From: a virus
Taxonomy: Duplodnaviria; Heunggongvirae; Uroviricota; Caudoviricetes
Virus record (IMG/VR): IMGVR_UViG_3300042868_008486
Location: 44,810 to 108,809 of that record
DNA length: 64,000 nucleotides
Strand: one strand, 5' to 3'
Shown: one piece after another, positions 1,879 through 49,351 of the stretch
How positions within the stretch are numbered: position 1 is the stretch's first letter
How the letters are laid out: each line of letters starts with the position of its first letter
Translations under genes and position numbers: made by a program
Notes under the pieces: model-generated
What the model was told of the DNA's origin: nothing
The model's database searches: none
The model's input: the letters and a program-made list of their open reading frames with translations, nothing else

Positions 1879-3207
1879 TTAATTTGATAATGGTGCTTTT
1901 ATTGTTGGATGTGATTGATATCCGATAATCTCAAAATCCGTAATTTCCATATTCTTAATAAGAACATCAATATCACTATGTAAAGGACCAACACCACATT
2001 CACCTGATTCAGTAGGCCAAAACTCAGTGTTAATGTTTAATGTTGGTAATTGAAATGGTGTCCTTGTTCTTGTCGGAATTTTAAATTCATCACAAACTTT
2101 TGTGAATTCTTCATCACTCATTCCTTCCTGTATCTTAGACAAATCTAATTTGGGGTTTTCATAACACATACAAACTCTTTCATCAACTCGTAATTCTCTA
2201 CCAATTTGTTCTTTTGCTTGTTCAATATGGTTTGAATATAAATGAGTATCTCCCAAGTTTCCAATTAATTGGTCAGGAACCATATTCACCTCTTTAGCAA
2301 TGATTTCCAATAACAATCCATAAGATGCAATATTGAATGGTAAACCTAAGAATGTATCTACTGAACGTTGATTCCACATTAATGAGATTGCTCTTCTTTG
2401 AGGAACTACATTAGTCCCTAAATTATCTAAAAATTCGTGTCTGTATACTAATTTTAATTCTTCAGTTTCATCAGGGTGATGTGTTTTAGTTAAACAATCT
2501 TCTCTTATTAACGGATTAAATTTATCTGCTATTGACAATCTCTCATCTAAACTCAACTCTCTTGTATAAACTTGAAATCCATAATGACAAGGTGGTAGTA
2601 CCATTGAATCCAATTCTCCAACATTCCAAGCATTTACCATCAAACGTCTTGAATCAGGATTTGTTTTAAGTTCGTTGATTAAACACGAGATTTGGTCAAT
2701 AACTGTTTGGTCAGCTTCTTCATAAATGTTTTCATATGAACCGTCAGTTGAAAAATACATTTTCTTTTTAGTCCATCTTCTCCATTGCTTACCATACACA
2801 GGACCTAAATCACCCCACTTCTTAGCAAACTCATCATCTGTTTTGATTTTGTTGATGAATTCTTCTTGCGTGTAGGAACGTTTGACTGTTTCATCCTCAT
2901 AAAATTCGTGACCATCTTTATAAGCGGTACAGTAATTCTTATAAGCATCACCATCCCAAATATGACAATCATTATCAACAAGGTATTTGATGTTTGTATC
3001 ACCACGTAAGAACCATAACAATTCGGTAATAACTCCTTTCATATACATTTTCTTTGTTGTAAGAAGAGGAAATCCGTCCTTCATATTATGACGAATGGTA
3101 TAACCAAAGATAGATTTAGTTCCCGTACCGGTTCTATCTTTCTTATCAACCCCATAATCTAATATGGTTTGAAGTAAATCTGTGTATTGTTTATCTAACG
3201 TGTTCAT
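1879..3207 (-). CDS. thyA: Thymidylate synthase with three large insertions
   Basis: DRTGTGT, FPLLTTKK, ELLWFLRG, LGPVYGKQWR, SRRLMVNAWN, LPPCH (catalytic Cys), QRSVDTFLGLPFNIASY, GDTHLYSNH, C-terminal IKAPLS. Confidence 0.97.
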   Translation of the reverse strand: MNTLDKQYTDLLQTILDYGVDKKDRTGTGTKSIFGYTIRHNMKDGFPLLTTKKMYMKGVITELLWFLRGDTNIKYLVDNDCHIWDGDAYKNYCTAYKDGHEFYEDETVKRSYTQEEFINKIKTDDEFAKKWGDLGPVYGKQWRRWTKKKMYFSTDGSYENIYEEADQTVIDQISCLINELKTNPDSRRLMVNAWNVGELDSMVLPPCHYGFQVYTRELSLDERLSIADKFNPLIREDCLTKTHHPDETEELKLVYRHEFLDNLGTNVVPQRRAISLMWNQRSVDTFLGLPFNIASYGLLLEIIAKEVNMVPDQLIGNLGDTHLYSNHIEQAKEQIGRELRVDERVCMCYENPKLDLSKIQEGMSDEEFTKVCDEFKIPTRTRTPFQLPTLNINTEFWPTESGECGVGPLHSDIDVLIKNMEITDFEIIGYQSHPTIKAPLSN

Positions 3208-11487: not shown

Positions 11488-12702
11488 TTATTTTACCGTA
11501 TCAATACTATTAATTTCCCAATCAATCTCATTGAACATTCGTTTTAATTTATATTCATATGTTCGATTAAACCAATCAACGATTAAATCAGGATTATTAC
11601 CAAAGACTTCAAATAATTTAGAGTATCTTGGTTCCAAATATAATCTCCTATCATCTGAACCATAATCATTATCAAAAAACCCAATTAACTTAGAATTAAG
11701 ATTAAATCTGTCTTTATCTATAACATAGATGTTAACACCATCTTCTGATGGGCTCATTACAAATTTAACATTCTCAGGTAATAACTGAGGGGCAACGTGT
11801 TTGATGTATTTATCAATCGTATTATCTTTTTTAGATTCGGTATTCTCATTAATAGATTTACCCTCATCTTCACTAAACTCTTCCGCATCAACAAGTATTT
11901 GAATTTTATTATGGTCAATTCTATCAAAAAAACTACCGGTGATTGGGATTGAGTTGTTTGTTATCTTATTCCACTTATCAACAATATCCATAGTTAAATG
12001 ACTACGATAATTGGGTTGCCAAGTGGCATAACCACCAGCATCACTCTCCGTATAATGAACTATAACTAATGGAATATCTTTAAATCTTGAGGGATGTAAA
12101 TAGGGGTCTTTTTTTCTTGTTACCTCCAAATGTGAAATATTGGGATATTCTTTATATAACCATTTCTTAAATAATTCAACCCTTTTATCAATTGGAATTG
12201 AAACCCCCTCATTAATTACTTCATCATCATCAACAAACTCTTCAGTATCAATAACAATTTTTGCATTATATCCACTAAATTTCCATCTAGGTATGACAGG
12301 TATTTGACCACCTGTAACTTTATTCCATTCGTCACTTATTTCACCCGCTAACCAAGAGTCGTGATTAACCGCATCACTATCGGTTGTATAATAAATTTTA
12401 ATTAACGGATGACCGTCATATGTTGAGGTTTCCAAAAACGAAATCTCGTCAAAATTATTATGTAACCATTTTTTAAATAAGTTAACACTTTTTTCGGTTG
12501 AAATCTCTTCTTTCAACAATCTAAATCTCAATAACGGTTTACCGTTAATTGTTATATCACCCTTGTCATTCTTACCAATGGTTTTAACAACAACCTTCTT
12601 ATTCTTAAATTTCCCACCCATTAATGTATCCCCAACTTTAATGTCGAGTTTAATCATTTCATTAATGGATTTATATTGTTCTTCAGTTATTATTATTTTC
12701 AT
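11488..12702 (-). CDS. MKIIITE-leader multi-module (polyprotein-like) protein
   Basis: 404 aa; modules bounded by SINE, LLKEE, VINE, SINE; internal duplicated domain (VNLFKKWL / VELFKKWL). Confidence 0.7.
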   Translation of the reverse strand: MKIIITEEQYKSINEMIKLDIKVGDTLMGGKFKNKKVVVKTIGKNDKGDITINGKPLLRFRLLKEEISTEKSVNLFKKWLHNNFDEISFLETSTYDGHPLIKIYYTTDSDAVNHDSWLAGEISDEWNKVTGGQIPVIPRWKFSGYNAKIVIDTEEFVDDDEVINEGVSIPIDKRVELFKKWLYKEYPNISHLEVTRKKDPYLHPSRFKDIPLVIVHYTESDAGGYATWQPNYRSHLTMDIVDKWNKITNNSIPITGSFFDRIDHNKIQILVDAEEFSEDEGKSINENTESKKDNTIDKYIKHVAPQLLPENVKFVMSPSEDGVNIYVIDKDRFNLNSKLIGFFDNDYGSDDRRLYLEPRYSKLFEVFGNNPDLIVDWFNRTYEYKLKRMFNEIDWEINSIDTVK

Positions 12703-12799
12703 AGTATCATTTTAAATTTTAGTCCTCATCCAACTGAACAAATTTGCGAAATTAGATTTTACTGTTTTGATTCCCCTTAAATTATAAACCTCACCCAAC
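12699..12799 (-). CRISPR. CRISPR-like mini-array (repeat-spacer-partial repeat) at the 3' end of the 12712 gene
   Basis: Minus strand GTTGGGTGAGGTTTATAATTTAAGGGGAATCAAAAC (36 nt, 12764-12799), 29-nt spacer (12735-12763), then GTTGGATGAGGACTAAAATTTAA (19/23 identical to the first copy). Confidence 0.5.
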
Positions 12800-13140
12800 C
12801 ACTTCTCTGTAACTTTTTGAATAACAAGGTTGGTCAAATCAAAATATTCATCCAAAACCCACCAAATATCAGAACTAATGTAAACTTCATCATTTCGTCT
12901 GTTGTAAACCATTAAGTTATAACCTTTTTTATAACGAAATAACGTCCAATCACCATCTGTTTCAGATTGAACAACTTCCAAATCATCAAACAGGTGTAAG
13001 AACTCCATAAAAGTATCAATATTCAATACTTTACAAAAAGTATCAAACCCACCCATTAAGTCAATAACCTGTTTAACCCCATTGGTTTTAATCAACTCTT
13101 TAAGTCTCTCAACTTTATTTTCGGTTATTATTATTTTCAT
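12712..13140 (-). CDS. MKIIITE-leader paralog-family protein ending in WLGEVYNLRGIKT
   Basis: GVKQVIDLMGG module + ~85-aa domain (LFRYKKG...VYIS..IW). Confidence 0.75.
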   Translation of the reverse strand: MKIIITENKVERLKELIKTNGVKQVIDLMGGFDTFCKVLNIDTFMEFLHLFDDLEVVQSETDGDWTLFRYKKGYNLMVYNRRNDEVYISSDIWWVLDEYFDLTNLVIQKVTEKWLGEVYNLRGIKTVKSNFANLFSWMRTKI

Positions 13141-13883
13141 ATCATTTTAATATAACTAGGACCCAGTAAAGGTTCTGTTCTCTTTAAGTTTAAGTGGAAA
13201 ACATCTTCAGCCCACTCCTTAGTGTATTCAATAATACTGTAGTATTCAATACCAAGTTTACCATTTAAAAAATCCCAAATTTCTTTTTCACTTATGTAAA
13301 GACACTTTAGGAATTTATCGTAAATCATCACATTATTACCTTCCTGATATCTAAATAAAATGTAATCATTTTTATCTTTTGATTGAACTGCCTCTAAATC
13401 ATCAAATAGATGTAAAAAGTCCATCGGACCACTAAGATTAAATATTTTACAAAATTTATCCCAACCACCCATTAATTTAATTGTGGTATTAGGTCCTTCA
13501 CGATTAAGTATATATTTAAGTTTATCAACTTTATTTTCAGTAATAATACCGTCTTCAAGTTTACCATTAATTAATATTGGGACAATCCAAGGTTTTCCTG
13601 TGTAGTATAATTTTTCACGTAAATATTGTGCAAATCCTTGAACATCATCTTCATCAAAGTAAGCGTCTGCATAAACATCAATATAAACACTTAATGATGG
13701 TTTATGTTTGATATTTATCACTTTAACTTTATCTATATGGCTAAACAATGTTAGATACCAATTACTAGCACTAATCTCTTCATTACGATAACGTTCCTTT
13801 AGTACGGATAATTCTTCATCAATCAATCGTTGGAATAACCCAAAAACCTTTTTATTTACTTCCTCGTTAATTAATATCTTCAT
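13137..13883 (-). CDS. Fused two-module leader protein; C-terminal half paralogous to 12712
   Basis: MKILINE; internal IITENKVDKLK; FLHLFDDLE shared with 12712. Confidence 0.75.
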   Translation of the reverse strand: MKILINEEVNKKVFGLFQRLIDEELSVLKERYRNEEISASNWYLTLFSHIDKVKVINIKHKPSLSVYIDVYADAYFDEDDVQGFAQYLREKLYYTGKPWIVPILINGKLEDGIITENKVDKLKYILNREGPNTTIKLMGGWDKFCKIFNLSGPMDFLHLFDDLEAVQSKDKNDYILFRYQEGNNVMIYDKFLKCLYISEKEIWDFLNGKLGIEYYSIIEYTKEWAEDVFHLNLKRTEPLLGPSYIKMI

Positions 13884-30384: not shown

Positions 30385-32386
30385 TCATTTCTTTAAATTT
30401 AATATTGTTTGTAAAAATGGTTTAATTAAATCATTCATTGTAACTTCTTCTAAACCTACGTTGTGATAATCAGTATGATTGGCAATTTTAACCATCCAAT
30501 CACATTCACTTCTATTAACTCTAATACCATCAATCTCAATTTCAAATGGACCAATATCTTTTATCATAAAGGTGTGGTCAAAATCAGGATGTTTATATTC
30601 TCTCATCTTTTAAGTTTTCTTTTTTGTAAACAAGTAATGCACTTCCTTGACCGTGAATTATTTCAAACACCCAATTATCTAAATAATACATTGAACCTGT
30701 AAACATTCCACAATACTTATTGAATTCTTCCTCGGTGAACTCTGTTCCGTATTTATTAGCATAAGTTGACATAACCCAAAGAAGTGTTTCCCTTGGTTCA
30801 TATCCTAAACTATGTTCGCGACTAATATACTCACTTGAATCATATTTATCTATCAACTTTTGAATTATTTCATCTAACCTATCTCGATAATTGTCGTGAA
30901 TATACTGAATGTATCTTTCCTTTCTTTCTTCATCGGCTTTAAGTTTTTCGGAAAATCTTTTCATACTTTCTTCACCTTCAGGTGAGTTAAGAAAATCTTT
31001 TAATGCCAGTAAATTTTTATTATAATCCATTTTAATTTTTTAAATCATCAATAATCTCACGAAACTTAATCATATAATCATAGTTCTCGTTTTCGTTATG
31101 AACGTTCTTCATTCTATCGTATATCCATTCTAAATGAATAATATTCTCCTGTTTCTTTTTTAGTCTTTCGGCTAGTTCTCGGAGAAGTTGTATTTGGTAT
31201 TGGTGGGTCATAAACTATTAATTACGATATAATTTAAACAATCATCTGCGGCTTCATCCATTGTTTCAAAACCCCACCATTCACAAGATTTAATAACATT
31301 GTTACCTGGTAATCCTACGTGTGTCCAAGTAATTCTTGTGTACCATTCACCGTCTTTGCGTCTAATTTTATTTTGGAATACGACAGACATACTTGAATTG
31401 AAGATTGCGTTCATTTTTTGACTTAATGTAATTTCTTCCATTGTTTTTTATAATTAAGGTAAGTATTTTACTATTAATACGATTCCCATTATACTAGAAT
31501 ATATGATTGACATTGCTAATAGAAAGGTCCACGCTTTCATATCTTCATCAAATATGGTATAATGTCCATATAATTTTTTAAACTTCATCAATCCGAAGAT
31601 TGAATATAATATAGTGATAGTTGTTAGTGTAATCATTTTATTCTCTTATTAATTTATATTCTACAGTATCTACTACTGTTACTTTATTTTCTTTATGGAT
31701 TGGGTTATTACAGGTTCCTTTATGTGTTCCCCAATCAGTATTAAAACCACCAAACTGACCAATATATTGGCAACCATCAATAACAATTTCTTCTAATTCA
31801 TCACCATCACCATATCTAATCCCCGTATATTTTCTATCTACATTAGGTTCAGTACAACTACCGATTGTGAGACCTATAACCAAAGTTAATAATAATTTTC
31901 TCATTTCTATATATTAATATAATTTATTGACAACATATTCTCCTAATATGTAGATGAGAAGTAATCCGACTAAACAAACAGCGACAACCGCAAAACCTAA
32001 AAGTCCGTGAAGTATTATCTCAATAAATTCAGGATTATCATCTTCATCAAAATCTTGAGATAATCTAATCATTAACTTACCCATACCATATAATATACCC
32101 ACGAATGAAGCCGCTATTGCCAACCCTATTATAAAATTCACTACAATCATTGTTTTTTATTTAATTCAATTAATAATAATTCGGTTGCTTGAACGGCTTT
32201 AATTGCTGCGGATGATAACGTGTCATTTTCAGCAATTAATTGTGTCATCAATTGTGTTGCAATATATTCTCTTTTGGTTAATCCTGTATTAGGAAATCCT
32301 GAACCTGTATATAATGGGAATGCTAGTTGTCTTCCTGATTCCATCGCTTGTTCTCTGTTTAATTTGTTTGCGTCGTCCTGTGTCAT
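30385..32386 (-). other. Block of small hypothetical and membrane genes (30385, 30593, 31032-31211, 31208, 31454, 31638, 31914, 32147)
   Basis: Packed ORFs incl. an unlisted 59-aa ORF 31032-31211 (MTHQYQIQLL...) and two TM-rich proteins. Confidence 0.65.
31638..31904 (-). CDS. Predicted lipoprotein
   Basis: MRKLLLTLVIGLTIGSC lipobox. Confidence 0.65.
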   Translation of the reverse strand: MRKLLLTLVIGLTIGSCTEPNVDRKYTGIRYGDGDELEEIVIDGCQYIGQFGGFNTDWGTHKGTCNNPIHKENKVTVVDTVEYKLIRE

Positions 32387-32429
32387 AATTTCAGATGTAT
32401 TTATTACTCTCGTTTATATTATAGGGGTA

Positions 32430-32990
32430 AGATTTACCCTCGTTTAATTTAATGTATCTTCCACCTCATCTTCGCAGTCATCTAATAGGGACCACGTTGA
32501 ATCTACCTTAATATTTAAGGTCTCTTCCACCGAAAACGGTTGAATTTTATTTGAATGGTTTGTTGAGAGTACCTTACAATTTAGGGTGTCTTCCACCACA
32601 CCACGATTCTCATTTTCATCAAAATAAGTTGAATCTACCTTAATATTTAGGGTCTCTTCCACATTTAAGTGTTGTGATAACCCAAAATCAACTGATTCTA
32701 CCTTACAATTTAGGGTGTCTTCCACCACCTCTACCAATCGTTGACCATAATTCTTTGTTGTGAGTACCTTACAATTTAGGGTGTCTTCCACCTTTGAAAT
32801 AAGAATTAATTCATTCGGATTAGTTGAGAGTACCTTACAATTTAGGGTGTCTTGCACCAGCTTGCGTTGTGAAGACAATCGTTCCGGTGTTGAGAGTACC
32901 TTACAATTTAGGGTGTCTTGCACCGCGGTATTTTCATCTAAGTTGTGTAATTCAGTTCTACCTACCTTAGCATTTAGTTTATTTTCCACC
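32430..32990 (-). CRISPR. CRISPR-like array embedded in frame in a CDS: 8 full 36-nt repeats + terminal partial repeat, 8 unique spacers (7 x 30 nt, 1 x 27 nt)
   Basis: + strand repeats at 32496, 32562, 32628, 32691, 32757, 32823, 32889, 32955 (degenerate), partial ending 32465; consensus GTTGAGAGTACCTTACAATTTAGGGTGTCTTCCACC (minus: GGTGGAAGACACCCTAAATTGTAAGGTACTCTCAAC); internal hairpin; spacers unrelated to each other; no cas gene in window. Confidence 0.65.
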
Positions 32991-33235
32991 CATTCAGAGA
33001 TTAATTCCTGAAAGACCTCACTAGACATAGAAAATAACGTCATATAAGATTTGAAGAAATCATATCTCCACCACAGGTAATTGGTTTCAACTTTATATTC
33101 TAAGTACCAATATTTTTCTTCTCGGTTAACAAACCAAATACCTTTTGTGTTTGGGTTATAAATAATCTCACATTTATTGAGTTCTGTCTCAATCTGTTTA
33201 ATAAACCCTTGTTTAAATTTCTCAGGATAATTCAT
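32444..33235 (-). CDS. ~85-aa family domain followed by translated repeat-spacer units (VEDTLNCKVLST + 10 variable aa)
   Basis: 263 aa, no internal stop; N-terminal domain ends ISEWVENKLNAKV like the 12712/13137/4478 family. Confidence 0.75.
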   Translation of the reverse strand: MNYPEKFKQGFIKQIETELNKCEIIYNPNTKGIWFVNREEKYWYLEYKVETNYLWWRYDFFKSYMTLFSMSSEVFQELISEWVENKLNAKVGRTELHNLDENTAVQDTLNCKVLSTPERLSSQRKLVQDTLNCKVLSTNPNELILISKVEDTLNCKVLTTKNYGQRLVEVVEDTLNCKVESVDFGLSQHLNVEETLNIKVDSTYFDENENRGVVEDTLNCKVLSTNHSNKIQPFSVEETLNIKVDSTWSLLDDCEDEVEDTLN

Positions 33236-34846
33236 AATGGTTTATTATTAATTGCCTCATTGTGGTATTGTTTTAATTTAGAGATTCTATTCTTCATTTT
33301 AACTGACATAAATTTCTCTAAAGTAACTTTATTATATTCAAATTTAAGTGCTGGGTTAGTCATTTTCCCTGCGTATTTATGATATCCCATACCCCAATTC
33401 ATTCCGTTATCCACAACATCATAAACATTTATGATAACATTTTTATCTGTAACACTTTGAACTATAGCAAGGACCTCCTGAGTTGGGTGGTATAATGAAT
33501 TTGTAAACTCAGGTTGTCTTGGGTTGCTAACATATCCGTATACGTTTTTTAACTCGTCAATAACGTTTTTCATCATTTGGTCCTTGTTCATAGTATCAGT
33601 GTTTTAGTGGTTTGTCTTACAAATATAATAAAAAAACCCCAACTTATCATTGGGGGTTGAATTATATTTCTTTAATTACTTTAAGTTTTTTTTCTTCTTC
33701 TTTTTGGAACTTATTTTGGAGTATTTTAGTTTCTCTTCTGCTCAATGCACCGTTAACCCAATCCTTAATATATTCAGATTTGAAATAGAAATTATCATTA
33801 AGAAGTCTATATTGTTCCATACGAAGATTTGGGGAATCCTCACATTCAAATTCTTCAATTTTCAATTTAAAGAACCACCACTTTTTTGTTACGTATTTCC
33901 TAACCGTTACACTCACCCAAGGTTTACTTAGGTGTCTACTAGAACTATACTCAAAATAACAATCATATGTTATTTCATCAATGGTACATTTAACCCAATC
34001 TTTCTCTTTAACATATTCTTGTTCCATACTATTTCTTTTTATTTTCTTCAAACCAAACATTGAAGTTTGCCGTTCTTATTTCTTTTTGAACTGTAACCAA
34101 TGACCCACAAAGTTTATCATCATTATGTGTTAAACCTTTAATAAGTAATTCTCTAACCTCATCTTCAGTATATTTAACTTGTTTAGGTCTTTCCATAGTA
34201 ATAATCACGTCAGCATTATCCGCAAAATATTTCCCTGTTTCATCTTGTTTAGGTTCATCTTGTGGTATGATGATTTTGTATTCTCTAATATCATTGTGTG
34301 CTATAAAGCCAATATGAGCATATTCACAAGTAGGATTCTTAACAAACCACTCTAAGAACTCATCATCAATATCTTGAATGCCATCAGCAATTAGTTTTTG
34401 GTCTGTTGTTAAGATGATTTTTTTAACATAGGGATTATTTAACATTTTTCCCTTAGATATCATTACTTCACCGTTTACTATATCTAATATATGGTCACCA
34501 ACTTTAATCTCTTCTGAAGATGTGATGTAGATGTTTTGATTAGATAAATGTACTGATTCTTTTTCTGATTGGATATTATCAAATAAGATTAGTTTTCCAG
34601 TATTAACATTCAATTGTAACCTACTTGGTTGGTCTGTTGGGATTATAAATATATTTTTCATACTATTTCTTTTTAAAAATTATACTTATCTGACCTACTC
34701 TTTAAAAACTTTGTAATTTTCCTTGAACAGAATAATCGTTCAAACCAATTAAGGCCCATAATAAACTTTTCAGCATCAATATATCTTTCCGTCAGTTGTT
34801 CCATTTTTTCTAATGAGAATTCAGTAACATTCTTAGTTTTATCCAT
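33232..34846 (-). other. Block of hypothetical genes (33232-33591, 33662-34027, 34029-34661, 34673-34846)
   Basis: 34029 carries KKIILTTDQ.LI.DG+Q.IDDEFLEWFVKNP.CE, a pattern I recall from Bacteroidota phages; hairpin+promoter variant at ~33620-33659. Confidence 0.65.
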
Positions 34847-44700: not shown

Positions 44701-45639
44701 TGGTGACGGCATACCACTGTAATGACACCATAAATCATCATCCAAATTTTCTTCTTTCATTTTATATCTTTAAAAAATTGTTGAACAATATAATCAGGTG
44801 CGGGTAAAATATCAAGACGGTGAGCAATCTCAGTTAAACCAAATTCTTCATCACTCATTAATTCCTTTCTTAAATTAGTCGCATCAACTATTGTTGGTTC
44901 TTCCCAATATCCAACAAAGTGTAAGATATCCATCATTTCACCTTCTTGAGTTGGGTCAATAACCATCAACCCATATTTAATATCTTTTATATTATGTTCT
45001 TTACTCATCTTTATTTAACTTTTCCAATAGATTATTCATAGTGTCCATAATAGTTTCACCAACAGAATAAGGACACGGACTAACATTTTCTTCTAACCAT
45101 TCTTCAAGTCGGTATGAAACCTCTTCATTATTTACCTCTTGTACAAAACTAGCATCTTCCTCAGCCATAAATGCAACATAACCCTTAAACCTTAAATTAA
45201 TTAATGTTAGTGGATAGATATCTTCCCACGTTTTATAAACTCGTTTACTCATCTTTGTTTTGTTTTTAATAATCTACTCCAAATTTTTATTACCATATCT
45301 CTTTTAGGTGATGGTTTTAAAGTTTTCCATCTATCAATCCAATGTTGTATTTCTTCTTTACTCATAATATTAATTTAACGTCATTGTTCCTTGGAATTCG
45401 TGACTTGTTTTTAACTTAACCTCAGCCAATGTTTCAAATTCTGATATTTTACTTTCTTTAATACCAATAACCACATCAACCATATTACCACTATTTTGTT
45501 TTCTATCGTACTTCTCAAGACCCAAATGGTCAATAGTATTTATTTGACCCTTAACCATAAAGAGAGCGTATAAAAACTTACTCATCTTTTTATCACTGAC
45601 AGGTATTTTAACATACCTATAAACTAATTCTTCATTCAT
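41755..45639 (-). other. Block of ~14 small hypothetical genes
   Basis: Packed ORFs with ATGA overlaps; includes unlisted 38-aa ORF 45249-45365. Confidence 0.6.
43876..44250 (-). CDS. HNH endonuclease (start corrected to 44250)
   Basis: CAYCG...MQIDHIKPL...NLNPSCVRCNKWK. Confidence 0.9.
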   Translation of the reverse strand: MKINREEVWLKCDKKCAYCGTEITMKQMQIDHIKPLYRNDKDETLVVWGVERGTDDMDNLNPSCVRCNKWKSTFSLGMFREVVQNSINRLERDTPNFRLAKDYGLLNVTENKVIFYFEKHFNDE

Positions 45640-46713: not shown

Positions 46714-47289
46714 TTACCCCCTTAACTTATTATAATATGAAATTGGTTGATTCCAAAGGGTACATTTTTTACCATAGTAGTTATAAACCGATTCCCAAAA
46801 CAAAAAATCTTTTTGATTAACACCCTTAATATGTGTTTTTGGCCATCTACATTCAGTTAAAGATGAGTGATGTGAAATAACGTTACCGGTATCAATTCTA
46901 CCATATTTTGGATAATTAGCTTTTAATCTTATCCCACCGACCTTTTTTGTCTGTTCACCAACCAACATACCAATAAAGTTATGCTCAAGACATTCACGAT
47001 ATTTGAGATACATATTTTCGTGAAAAATAGTATCATCATCTAAAAAACAAAAGTAACCATCATTTATAGTTTCAAGAACCGCATTTCGTTTAGATGTTGT
47101 ATCAGTATCTTCACAATCAACATTATATAACCTGATTCTTTTATCAGTTTTAATAAAATCATTAGTTAAATCTTCTCTTTTGTTTGACTTGGAAATATGC
47201 CAAATTAAATCTTCATTAAGATTAATTGAATTATATATTTTCTCAAGATATTCAAACCTATATAAAGCCGTTATAATATGTAATGTCAT
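46714..47289 (-). CDS. Glycosyltransferase, GT-A fold
   Basis: LHIITALYR; SKRNAVL; YFCFLDDDTIFH; IDTGN. Confidence 0.8.
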   Translation of the reverse strand: MTLHIITALYRFEYLEKIYNSINLNEDLIWHISKSNKREDLTNDFIKTDKRIRLYNVDCEDTDTTSKRNAVLETINDGYFCFLDDDTIFHENMYLKYRECLEHNFIGMLVGEQTKKVGGIRLKANYPKYGRIDTGNVISHHSSLTECRWPKTHIKGVNQKDFLFWESVYNYYGKKCTLWNQPISYYNKLRG

Positions 47290-47915
47290 TGGGTGTATAT
47301 TTTAAATTTGGACAAATCAGGATATGGTAATTCTACATCCTCATTTATTATTTTATTACCTTTATTATCATAAAATTGATTCATCATTAATAAACCTCTC
47401 ACAGATATTTCAGGCATCATATAAAAATTCCAACCCAACATATCAAATTCATCGTCGTGATAAGAACATTCATTACGACCACTAAATCTTGCACGTTTAA
47501 ACCATTCATACGCTTTAACATCATCAGTCAGTATTGCACCACCTTTTGATAATTTTAAATGTTTATACGCACCTGTAAATGACAAACACATATGTGTATT
47601 AGGTTTATACATATCCGCAGTAAACCTTAATGCCGAATCCCAAACTTTAGTTGGTTTTAATTGGTAAGCCCCCTTCAATTTGTCACTCCCAATTTCATAA
47701 AATTTAACCTTACCACCTGCGTGTATTATTTCACAAGGTACTGATGGATAAGTTCTATTAGGGATTTCAATTTCTTTTCCTTTTATACCTTCATAATATA
47801 ACGATAAAAACAACGCATTACTTTGATTATCCACTGTTACCACATATGGAGCACCTGTGTAATCAGAAATCTTTTTTTCAAATTCTTCAGTAATTTTATA
47901 TATACCTTCAGCCAT
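47286..47915 (-). CDS. Short DegT/DnrJ/EryC1/StrS PLP-dependent sugar aminotransferase
   Basis: FEKKISDYTGAPYVVTV.N.SNALFLSL; WDSA; SFTGAYKHL..SKGGAILTDD; GWNFYM. Confidence 0.85.
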   Translation of the reverse strand: MAEGIYKITEEFEKKISDYTGAPYVVTVDNQSNALFLSLYYEGIKGKEIEIPNRTYPSVPCEIIHAGGKVKFYEIGSDKLKGAYQLKPTKVWDSALRFTADMYKPNTHMCLSFTGAYKHLKLSKGGAILTDDVKAYEWFKRARFSGRNECSYHDDEFDMLGWNFYMMPEISVRGLLMMNQFYDNKGNKIINEDVELPYPDLSKFKIYTQ

Positions 47916-48552
47916 TTTCTCTAATTATTTTACAAGGGTTTCCATACGCAACAACATTATCGGGAATGTCTTTAGTAACTAATGAACCAGCACCAATTAT
48001 GGTATTATCACCTATCTTAACACCATCAATTATGTTAACACCAATACCTATTTGACAACACTCACCAATTGTTACATTACCTGCAATATTAACGCCAGGG
48101 TTTATTGTACTATATTCACCAATTACGGTATGATGACCAATACTAACATTTCTATTAATAAAAACAAAATCACCAATTTTAGTGTGTCCTGCAATACAAG
48201 ACATAGTATTAATAACAACGCCTTTACCAATATCAATAGTGTCAGAGACATCGCTATTCTTTGAAATTAAACTCACATAAGAATTATCATCTAAATCTTT
48301 GAAGGTCTCTCGGACTTTCTTTCTCAAATGTGGTTTTACAACCCCTAAAGTTATTAGTTCATTTTTTATTGTTGCAGCATTATCAACAATTTTTATTAAA
48401 AATTTGGGATGTTCGTATTCTTTAATTGGTTCCAACCCCAAATTATTTACCACATTAATCTCAGGATAATTATCTTGTGAGTCTAAAATATCCAATAACA
48501 TTGTTATTGTTGCCTCACTAAACCCTAGTATTATTAATTTTTCTATTACCAT
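47908..48552 (-). CDS. Sugar N/O-acyltransferase, NeuD/PglD hexapeptide-repeat family
   Basis: Left-handed beta-helix repeats, catalytic SIGHH, C-terminal VTKDIPDNVVAYGNPCK. Confidence 0.92.
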   Translation of the reverse strand: MVIEKLIILGFSEATITMLLDILDSQDNYPEINVVNNLGLEPIKEYEHPKFLIKIVDNAATIKNELITLGVVKPHLRKKVRETFKDLDDNSYVSLISKNSDVSDTIDIGKGVVINTMSCIAGHTKIGDFVFINRNVSIGHHTVIGEYSTINPGVNIAGNVTIGECCQIGIGVNIIDGVKIGDNTIIGAGSLVTKDIPDNVVAYGNPCKIIRENG

Positions 48553-49351
48553 ACCCCAATTCTCTAAATTCTTTAGGTGTCATTATAATAACCCCCAATT
48601 CTTCTTTGATTTTATTAATTCGATTTAATAGCCACATATTTGTTGTTTTATTTTTACCAACAGAATATAAGTTATCCTCAAGACCAATTCTAATACCATC
48701 AGCATATAATAAACCCATTATATTTGATTTCAATTGTTCTTTACCTATACCACCTAAACAAAGTATACTATTTTTAGGTTTATTAGTCAATATTGACGAA
48801 ATTGTCGGTAAATCAGATTGAGCATTGTATATATTACCCAAAATAACATTGATATAATGAGGTCCGTCAAGTATACCTTTATTAATTAAATAATTAGTGT
48901 AGTTTAACATACCACTATCAAAACATTCGATTTCAGGTATAACACCATATGTTTTCATTTTATCAATTAACTTTAAAATCATATCGGGAGAATTAACCGA
49001 CTCACCCGTTGGAAAATTGATTGATGACATAGTTAGAGAACCCATATCAGGTAATAATTCCAAAACTTCTGACCTTAAATTAAAGTCAGGTTCCAATCTA
49101 CCCGTAAGTGAGGTACAAATAACCAAATCAGGACAGTGTTGTCTAATACCTTCAATTATTGGTCTATAATGGTTTTTATCATTACTATTTTTTAGTGTCT
49201 CAGGATGTCTTGAATGGATATGTGTCATTGTTATCCCATATTCATATGCCTCGTGAACCTCCTCAATAATTTGATTTGGTTCAAGTGGTGCGTATGAATT
49301 CTCTCTAGTAGGTTGTGTACCTGTTGGTGCAAAATTAATTATTTTTTTCAT
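48518..49351 (-). CDS. kce: Beta-keto acid cleavage enzyme (BKACE / 3-keto-5-aminohexanoate cleavage family, DUF849)
   Basis: APTG, PLEP..I..E...A...G....HIH.R, PE.E.FDSG, RIGLEDNLY. Confidence 0.9.
   Translation of the reverse strand: MKKIINFAPTGTQPTRENSYAPLEPNQIIEEVHEAYEYGITMTHIHSRHPETLKNSNDKNHYRPIIEGIRQHCPDLVICTSLTGRLEPDFNLRSEVLELLPDMGSLTMSSINFPTGESVNSPDMILKLIDKMKTYGVIPEIECFDSGMLNYTNYLINKGILDGPHYINVILGNIYNAQSDLPTISSILTNKPKNSILCLGGIGKEQLKSNIMGLLYADGIRIGLEDNLYSVGKNKTTNMWLLNRINKIKEELGVIIMTPKEFRELGYGNRKINNTRV

Follow-up and report, generated by a model that had tools for sequence, protein, structure and literature searches.

A translated repeat-spacer array with type VI-B CRISPR-like repeats in a protein family of uncultured lake jumbo phages

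The DNA analysed here, a stretch of 64,000 nucleotides (nt) hereafter called the window, covers positions 44,810 to 108,809 of the IMG/VR virus record IMGVR_UViG_3300042868_008486 (Caudoviricetes), which is 186.8 kb long, 64% complete and has ≈32% G+C. On its minus strand, at nt 32430–32990, the window carries an array with a period of 66 nt that has the layout of a CRISPR array (short palindromic repeats, clustered and regularly interspaced) and is read in frame as the tail of a protein. The open reading frame (ORF) concerned (nt 32444–33235, minus strand, 263 amino acids, aa), defined from the ORF list, from 120 homologues and from an AlphaFold2 model, codes for a folded N-terminal domain (N-domain) followed by the translated repeats and spacers. 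The N-domain coding part (nt 32991–33235, residues 1–82, ending in ISEW), delimited by alignments, occupies the place of a CRISPR leader. It is followed by a first repeat copy (nt 32955–32990), degenerate at the nucleotide level (VENKLNAKVGRT) and found as an identical copy in the related locus L008, and then by seven well-kept 36-nt repeats alternating with spacers (nt 32496–32924; starts, in plus-strand coordinates, at 32889, 32823, 32757, 32691, 32628, 32562 and 32496), all on the minus strand. In gene sense these seven good copies read GGTGGAAGACACCCTAAATTGTAAGGTACTCTCAAC, and the peptide encoded by each is V-E-[DE]-T-L-N-[CI]-K-V-x-S-[TV]. The eight spacers (span nt 32466–32954, minus strand) each encode one 10-residue cassette, with the exception of one cassette of 9 residues: spacers 1–4 (nt 32925–32954, 32859–32888, 32793–32822 and 32727–32756) are 30 nt each, spacer 5 (nt 32664–32690) is 27 nt and spacers 6–8 (nt 32598–32627, 32532–32561 and 32466–32495) are again 30 nt. 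The array closes with a truncated minus-strand repeat (nt 32430–32465, ≈19–22 nt matching) whose codon 7 is the stop TAA (nt 32444–32446), and this ending is the same in the related loci L008, L011 and L012.

The first-pass annotation of this DNA, made from the letters alone, had described 36-nt repeats and eight mutually unrelated spacers, one of 27 nt, inside an ORF, and this is borne out by the coordinates given above and by a shuffle test, in which the full repeat with at most three mismatches occurred 4 times in the window and never in 100 shuffles. It had also pointed out that the first repeat base is at the same time the third base of the preceding codon and is nearly always G, although the amino acid differs. 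The same eight codons (TGG, GCG, CTG, AAG, GTG, GTG, TCG and GAG) were recovered, thus G is found in 8 of 9 units and T in one.

The ATG of the array ORF overlaps the stop codon of an upstream gene (ATGA), which codes for 119 aa (nt 33232–33591, minus strand), is translationally coupled to the array gene and has no family match. Upstream of this two-gene unit lie, on the minus strand, a hairpin resembling a terminator with a T run behind it (nt 33637–33655) and, accompanying it, an AT-rich box (TTATTATATTTGT in relatives). At the other end, a small hairpin of 6 bp is found just past the array stop (nt 32424–32440, minus strand; AACGAGGGTAAATCTTACCCC, with the stem listed on the plus strand), its sequence being the same in L008, L011 and L012 and the segment being duplicated in L011 (L011:4380–4450). 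This post-stop segment (nt 32400–32443) contains GGGTAAA, which is nearer to real type VI-B repeats than the internal copies are, and may be either a terminator or what is left of the oldest repeat.

The phage of the window is present in many lake-water metagenomes, and the array in the lake DNA runs examined is identical to that of the window. Relatives, themselves uncultured jumbo phages, were sampled by fetching 42 loci from IMG/VR, from which 45 arrays, 220 units and 162 distinct spacers were parsed. All share one design, i.e., an N-domain of ≈85 aa, then units of 22 codons and finally a truncated repeat carrying the stop. The array protein has 120 homologues in metagenomes with lengths stepping by 22 aa, and intervals between their units are exactly 22 aa in 379 of ≈410 cases. 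At the nucleotide level, unit spacing is 66 nt in 207 cases, the rest being 63, 72 or 75 nt apart from one exceptional interval of 39 nt within an irregular unit of L010. Near-identical direct repeats, with a length inside the 23–47 bp range of CRISPRs, alternate with unique spacers of almost constant length, as in a CRISPR: 155 of the 162 distinct spacers are 30 nt, the remainder are 27, 36 or 39 nt, and all are multiples of 3, with at least one '36-nt' spacer (72-nt spacing) actually being a 6-nt insertion inside the repeat. Tandem domain-plus-array genes also occur, four in L010, three in L027 and two in L037, each gene having its own spacers and a slightly different repeat variant. The translated array is therefore a family and not an accident of one genome.

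Where a CRISPR has a non-coding array and an AT-rich non-coding leader, each of the 45 arrays and its upstream flank form one ORF. The sole in-frame stop over the 45 arrays and the 162 distinct spacers is a TAG in L051. It is formed by a spacer ending in TA and the first G of the repeat (L051:492–560), and the array goes on behind it. The probability that a 30-mer drawn at random from this genome has no stop in the gene frame is p = 0.505, which gives p ≈ 0.004 for the eight spacers of the window, so that the first-pass remark on the improbability of stop-free spacers holds, and with a single in-frame stop among the 162 distinct spacers, chance is excluded as the reason for the open frame. In line with this, units with spacers of 29 or 31 nt are absent from the whole of IMG/VR when a strict repeat-gap-repeat pattern is searched (two unrelated chance matches were retrieved), against 203 normal units in the examined loci alone.

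The repeats are like those of type VI-B (Cas13b) systems. Published VI-B repeats are those of Flavobacterium columnare CRISPR-2 (GTTGGGAAAGCCCTTATTTTGAAGGGTATCTACAAC, with 30-nt spacers) and F. branchiophilum CRISPR-5/6/7 (PMC5395568, Table 4). An ungapped comparison in the same register and in gene (mRNA) sense of 135 distinct phage repeat copies with two of them gave on average 22 and 21 identical positions out of 36 and at most 26, i.e., a best identity of 72%, keeping in mind that the Flavobacterium repeats may not be those of the host. None of 20000 shuffles was as good, and only 1–4 of 20000 were when the GTTG/CAAC ends were held fixed, while against the II-C and V-A-like repeats of the same published table means of only 10–15 were obtained. 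The likeness is mainly in G.TGGAA at the 5′ end and GGTA..(A/T)CAAC at the 3′ end, and some 3′ tail variants are the same as published ones, GGTATCTACAAC of L037 equalling that of F. columnare and GGTAAACACAAC of L010 that of F. branchiophilum. The resemblance to VI-B repeats proposed in the first-pass annotation is thus found in the sequence as well as in the geometry of 36-nt repeat and 30-nt spacer. In F. columnare the CRISPR RNA (crRNA) sense of the VI-B array is the GTTGGG... strand (PMC8092290, Fig. 1 text), so the phage mRNA carries the repeat in crRNA sense and the domain stands in the place of the leader.

On the contrary, the whole-repeat hairpin that Cas13b needs (PMC13187072) is not kept in the phage repeats. 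Their mean folding energy is −4.0 kcal/mol, close to that of shuffles (−3.4 kcal/mol), whereas the real VI-B repeats reach −10.9 and −12.2 kcal/mol. All six stem pairs are kept in only 29 of the 135 distinct copies, pairs 13–25 and 14–24 are standard in just 51% and 66% of them, and a G at repeat position 2 disrupts the terminal GUUG/CAAC pairing. The interrupted hairpin ACCTTA/TAGGGT indicated in the first reading does form, but on the antisense strand (−8.4 kcal/mol), and is absent from the sense strand of the main variant. A search of Rfam, including its CRISPR direct-repeat families, left the array without a match.

No cas genes were found in the same genome with the models searched, in agreement with what the first-pass annotation had stated for the surroundings of the array. 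Cas1 (PF01867) gave no match in this record and five relatives, and Cas12f-TNB (PF07282) none in the record and in four relatives. Two of the relatives (293 and 326 kb) are 100% complete. This 64%-complete record, on which no Cas13b model was run, contains no ORF of at least 800 aa, the size of cas13b. As for expression, lake metatranscriptome contigs hold parts of the array gene and repeats joined to other spacers. This is weak evidence, since the RNA runs are short assembled contigs, which say nothing on RNA ends or on processing at repeat boundaries. In the public runs X19 and X20 (compared at window nt 31900–33700) the repeat is joined to otherwise unseen spacers, and in one contig of 405 nt the array joined to the downstream gene is much shorter. 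The RNA libraries thus contain relatives with other arrays, and carry-over of DNA is possible.

The repeat is constrained as nucleic acid, as the first-pass annotation had supposed, and this is seen both in codon bias relative to the usage of the same genes and in a one-base offset. Across 33 distinct array consensus sequences the synonymous positions of the repeat are nearly invariant. The Lys codon AAG is used in 97% of cases in the repeat vs. 30% in the N-domains of the same genes, the Val codon GTG at codon 1 in 90% vs. 28%, the Val codon GTA at codon 9 in 82% vs. 19% and the Glu codon GAA in 98% vs. 65%. In 212 of 220 units a G precedes GTG, at what is the third position of a variable codon, NNG codons making up 18.5% elsewhere. 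The conserved block of 36 nt begins one base ahead of the codon boundary and the third base of its final Thr codon is free, which indicates that the unit of conservation is a 36-nt nucleic acid and not a 12-residue peptide. Indeed, the repeat is ≈90% identical between phages whose N-domains share only 35–48% of residues. Conserved positions are concentrated at the ends (1–9 and 33–36) and in AAGGT (23–27), a pattern that would be expected if DNA ends were recognised rather than a folded RNA.

The pairwise identity of the spacers is bimodal, pairs having either at least 24 of 30 identical positions (the same spacer in related phages) or a random-like number, with one pair at 21 of 30. An origin of the spacers by duplication of units and divergence was rejected, since intermediates are lacking in these pairwise identities. 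Between related arrays the common spacers keep their order and the differences consist of whole units (L017–L026, L047–L049, and the window vs. L008, where spacers 1, 6 and 8 are common and in the same order while all others differ). The last spacers, at the trailer end, are the most widely shared, and three of the six singleton spacers of the L017–L026 group are at position 1. Comparing orthologous loci, as the first reading had advised, has thus shown the polarised, collinear turnover of a CRISPR array, with novelty adjoining the domain and a conserved trailer end. An exception to collinearity is given by some relatives, as in P0001 vs. P0008, in which units recur in a different order.

As for the protein, alignments of the N-domain show W43, W56, R57 and W82 to be invariant. 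AlphaFold2, run on a 77-sequence alignment, models residues 1–100 as a confident α/β domain (predicted local distance difference test, pLDDT, ≈90), in which helix 3 ends within the first repeat, which then leads to the last strand, itself located in the first cassette (residues 93–97). Units 2–4 are modelled at pLDDT ≈30, and the array tail is probably disordered. Over the ten consecutive cassette positions the information content is 0.3–0.7 bits with no hydrophobic pattern, thus neither the predicted structure nor the variable positions are those of a solenoid or leucine-rich-repeat-like protein. A fold search against the PDB retrieved nothing meaningful (best Z 5.2). The domain fold matches clusters of ≈110-aa viral proteins (TM 0.75–0.79) and two unnamed AlphaFold DB entries, and these look like stand-alone versions without an array. 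Pfam, PHROGs and a search of the ESM Atlas by features gave no match for the array protein or the tested neighbours, and no DNA or protein relative of the array gene was found among GenBank phages. The paralogues in the window at nt 12712–13883 were considered as homologues of the N-domain and set aside, the match being weak (hhalign probability 6%).

Selection at the protein level is seen in the shared spacers, which have 16 synonymous vs. 12 nonsynonymous variable columns, where a synonymous share of 0.234 would be expected (P = 1.2e-4), and also in the spacers' share of T at second codon positions, lower than in stop-filtered random fragments (figures below). The array is thus under a dual constraint, with the nucleotides of the repeat frozen and the shared spacers differing mainly by synonymous changes.

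A second, different mini-array is present in the window at nt 12699–12799, where the 3′ end of a minus-strand gene (nt 12712–13140) is a 36-nt unit, GTTGGG...AAAAC, with the codon phase of the main repeat. This unit is like the main one at 23 of 36 positions, and after it come a spacer of 29 nt and a second copy, of which ≈23 nt are kept. The same repeat and the same truncated second copy are found in L071–L074 with a different spacer of ≈30 nt in each lineage, that of L073 holding an in-frame stop. Elsewhere in the window, an operon at nt 46714–49351 codes for BKACE, a hexapeptide acyltransferase and a split DegT-like gene, and is 70–89% identical in many related phage contigs (L067–L070), where a DnaJ gene adjoins it. 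A thymidylate synthase gene (nt 1879–3207, minus strand) has the unusual length of 442 aa, with its Pfam match in two stretches.

The reading that we favour, with a probability of roughly one half, is that of a CRISPR-type array that also codes, being extended in 66-bp steps by a seemingly non-phage integrase and selected as a protein tail. The ancestral gene would have coded for a phage-specific α/β domain of ≈110 aa, the last 36 coding bases of which would serve as the 'repeat'. Each step would add 66 bp, that is the duplication of the 36-bp repeat plus a new 30-bp insert, or 22 codons, mostly at the side of the domain, and units would be lost by recombination between repeats. Since no Cas1 match was found in the searched phage records and the repeat ends are VI-B-like, the writer would most likely be the CRISPR integrase of the host. 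Selection would then keep those units that preserve the frame, are free of stops and are not too hydrophobic, and the product would have a folded head, while its long tail, probably disordered, would be made of constant 12-residue motifs and variable 10-residue cassettes. At a guess, such a tail might act as a fast-changing or multivalent early protein in the conflict between phage and host. A more specific version, which we put forward tentatively and rate at somewhat less than an even chance, is that a host CRISPR integrase, most likely the II-C Cas1–Cas2, writes 30-bp DNA into a gene end mimicking a leader-repeat junction and so adds 10-residue cassettes. Of what had been proposed in the first-pass annotation, the real, dually constrained array and its VI-B likeness stand, and the suggestion that acquisition of spacers generates a hypervariable tail is the one that fits best, while the supply of guides or decoys for Cas13b does not (see below).

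Several results weigh against the favoured reading. No protospacer was found in this genome and 45 loci (448 kb) or in GenBank phages, and two spacers searched in IMG/VR and in the metagenome contigs of the Joint Genome Institute (JGI) retrieved nothing beyond the arrays themselves, bacterial genomes not having been searched with spacers, so that foreign DNA is only a putative source of the inserts. When bacterial genomes were scanned with a core of the repeat variant coding for LNCKV (GGAAGA, five free bases, TAAATTGTAAGGTA), a pattern that is too specific, the outcome was no array and one chance match, in a Spirochaete metallo-beta-lactamase-like gene. The G+C content at third codon positions (GC3) of the spacers is 0.327 vs. 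0.302 in the N-domains (z = 1.7), thus giving no significant sign of a foreign origin. The codon-position make-up of the spacers (G at first positions 0.27, T at second positions 0.25) is nearer to real phage coding sequence than to stop-filtered random fragments of the genome (0.19 and 0.36), which means either that hydrophobic cassettes are selected against or that the inserts come from in-frame coding DNA. Such a coding-like make-up needs strong extra selection or another source. Finally, the cassettes are under purifying selection, so that the tail is a working protein, and this fits an ordinary repeat protein equally well.

An ordinary, fast-rearranging phage repeat protein is in fact the alternative that survives best, even if we consider it unlikely. 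Its units would be of 22 residues, 12 constant and 10 free, and its cassettes would be shuffled, lost and exchanged by homologous recombination at the constant part between co-infecting phages, with no CRISPR machinery involved and with a convergent or coincidental likeness to VI-B repeats. That the first repeat is part of the folded domain, that spacer lengths are all multiples of 3 with no out-of-frame units, and that P0001 and P0008 have reordered units is what such a protein would lead one to expect, as are the selection on the cassettes and their coding-like make-up, the failure of the searches made to find protospacers and the lack of Cas1 and Cas12f-TNB matches in the searched phage records. 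Recombination among existing units, however, provides no source for new cassettes, and spacer pairs have no intermediates; the frozen synonymous sites and the invariant G of the preceding codon are left unexplained, as are the exact 36 + 30 geometry and the VI-B match of 22–26 out of 36 positions. Moreover, the tail is predicted as disordered, unlike solenoid repeat proteins.

An RNA-based counter-defence, in which the repeat mimics of the mRNA would be bound or processed by a host Cas13b and would either flood it with harmless guides or arm it against competitors, appears improbable. The VI-B-like repeat lies in crRNA sense with the 36 + 30 geometry, and over-expression of non-targeting extra crRNA has been seen to weaken Cas13b defence ≈1000-fold (PMC13187072). 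In published searches for mimics, none turned up for type VI, but ORFs had been masked (PMC10651486), so that this class could have been missed, and the metatranscriptome contigs with gene parts and repeats agree with transcription, if weakly. The first-pass proposal that the array supplies guides or decoy crRNA to Cas13b is nonetheless weakened by the repeat itself, in which the whole-repeat hairpin is lost, folding being hardly better than in shuffles and pairs 13–25 and 14–24 being broken in 49% and 34% of copies. The G at position 2, an identity to known repeats of no more than 72% and the targets missing in the spacer searches made also speak against it, and the in-frame arrays and the purifying selection on cassettes would remain without explanation.

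The cyanobactin precursors PatE and TruE have constant flanks conserved at the nucleotide level, short hypervariable cassettes and a conserved leader. A multi-core precursor of this kind (a ribosomally synthesised and post-translationally modified peptide, RiPP), with constant recognition sequences flanking hypervariable cores to be excised or modified, would account for the leader-like conserved head and for the nucleotide-level identity of the constant parts around the cores, but is very improbable here, since no maturation enzyme, such as a protease or cyclase, was matched in Pfam or PHROGs by any tested neighbour gene, other lineages have H, S, Y, F, N or I in place of the motif Cys, the cores show no positional preference and the geometry is exactly that of a CRISPR.

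Returning to the CRISPR-type coding array, its nearest known counterpart is the VI-B (Cas13b) array of Flavobacterium, which is filled in trans by the type II-C Cas1–Cas2 (Hoikkala et al. 2021, PMC8092290). Besides repeat and spacer lengths and identical positions in the same register and orientation, the two have in common that no adaptation gene is found in cis and that the variable end adjoins the upstream 'leader'. In the phage this 'leader' instead codes for a protein domain, and translation runs through the entire array, with selection on frame and peptide; furthermore, the array is phage-borne, its internal hairpin is not conserved, the record holds no cas13b-sized ORF and no protospacers were found. 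Cas-less CRISPR arrays and mini-arrays of viruses (Medvedeva et al. 2019; Al-Shayeb et al. 2020, PMC7162821; reviewed in PMC11656645) are likewise virus-borne repeat-spacer arrays, and the array described here, with no Cas1 or Cas12f-TNB match, shares with them the presumed reliance on host machinery. Those arrays are non-coding, with spacers matching competing viruses or host genes, whereas here the array is the tail of an ORF and its repeats are only ≈60–70% like known host repeats. Phage-borne mimics of CRISPR repeats are also known as RNA anti-CRISPRs (Racr, solitary repeat units; Camara-Wilpert et al. 2023, PMC10651486). Racr candidates, however, are non-coding copies at least 90% identical to known repeats that act as small RNAs, and none was reported for type VI in that search, in which ORFs were masked. 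By the same SRUFinder definition (non-coding, at least 90% identity; PMC10651486) the phage repeats would not be counted, as they lie within an ORF and reach at best 72% with the published VI-B repeats.

The usual view of CRISPR arrays is that they are genes for non-coding RNA. Translated CRISPR-type arrays were not described in any paper found in our literature search. A survey of repeat proteins removed 'translated CRISPRs' as artefacts (PMC10392669). With ORFs being masked in one kind of search (PMC10651486) and 'translated CRISPRs' discarded in the other, a family of translated arrays would be filtered out by design. If it is true that spacer integration extends the protein in frame, this would be a new way of protein diversification and a new kind of traffic between the host CRISPR machinery and phage genomes. 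Otherwise, abundant lake jumbo phages would still have in the array genes a large and fast-evolving family that is undescribed and whose constraint at synonymous sites needs explaining.

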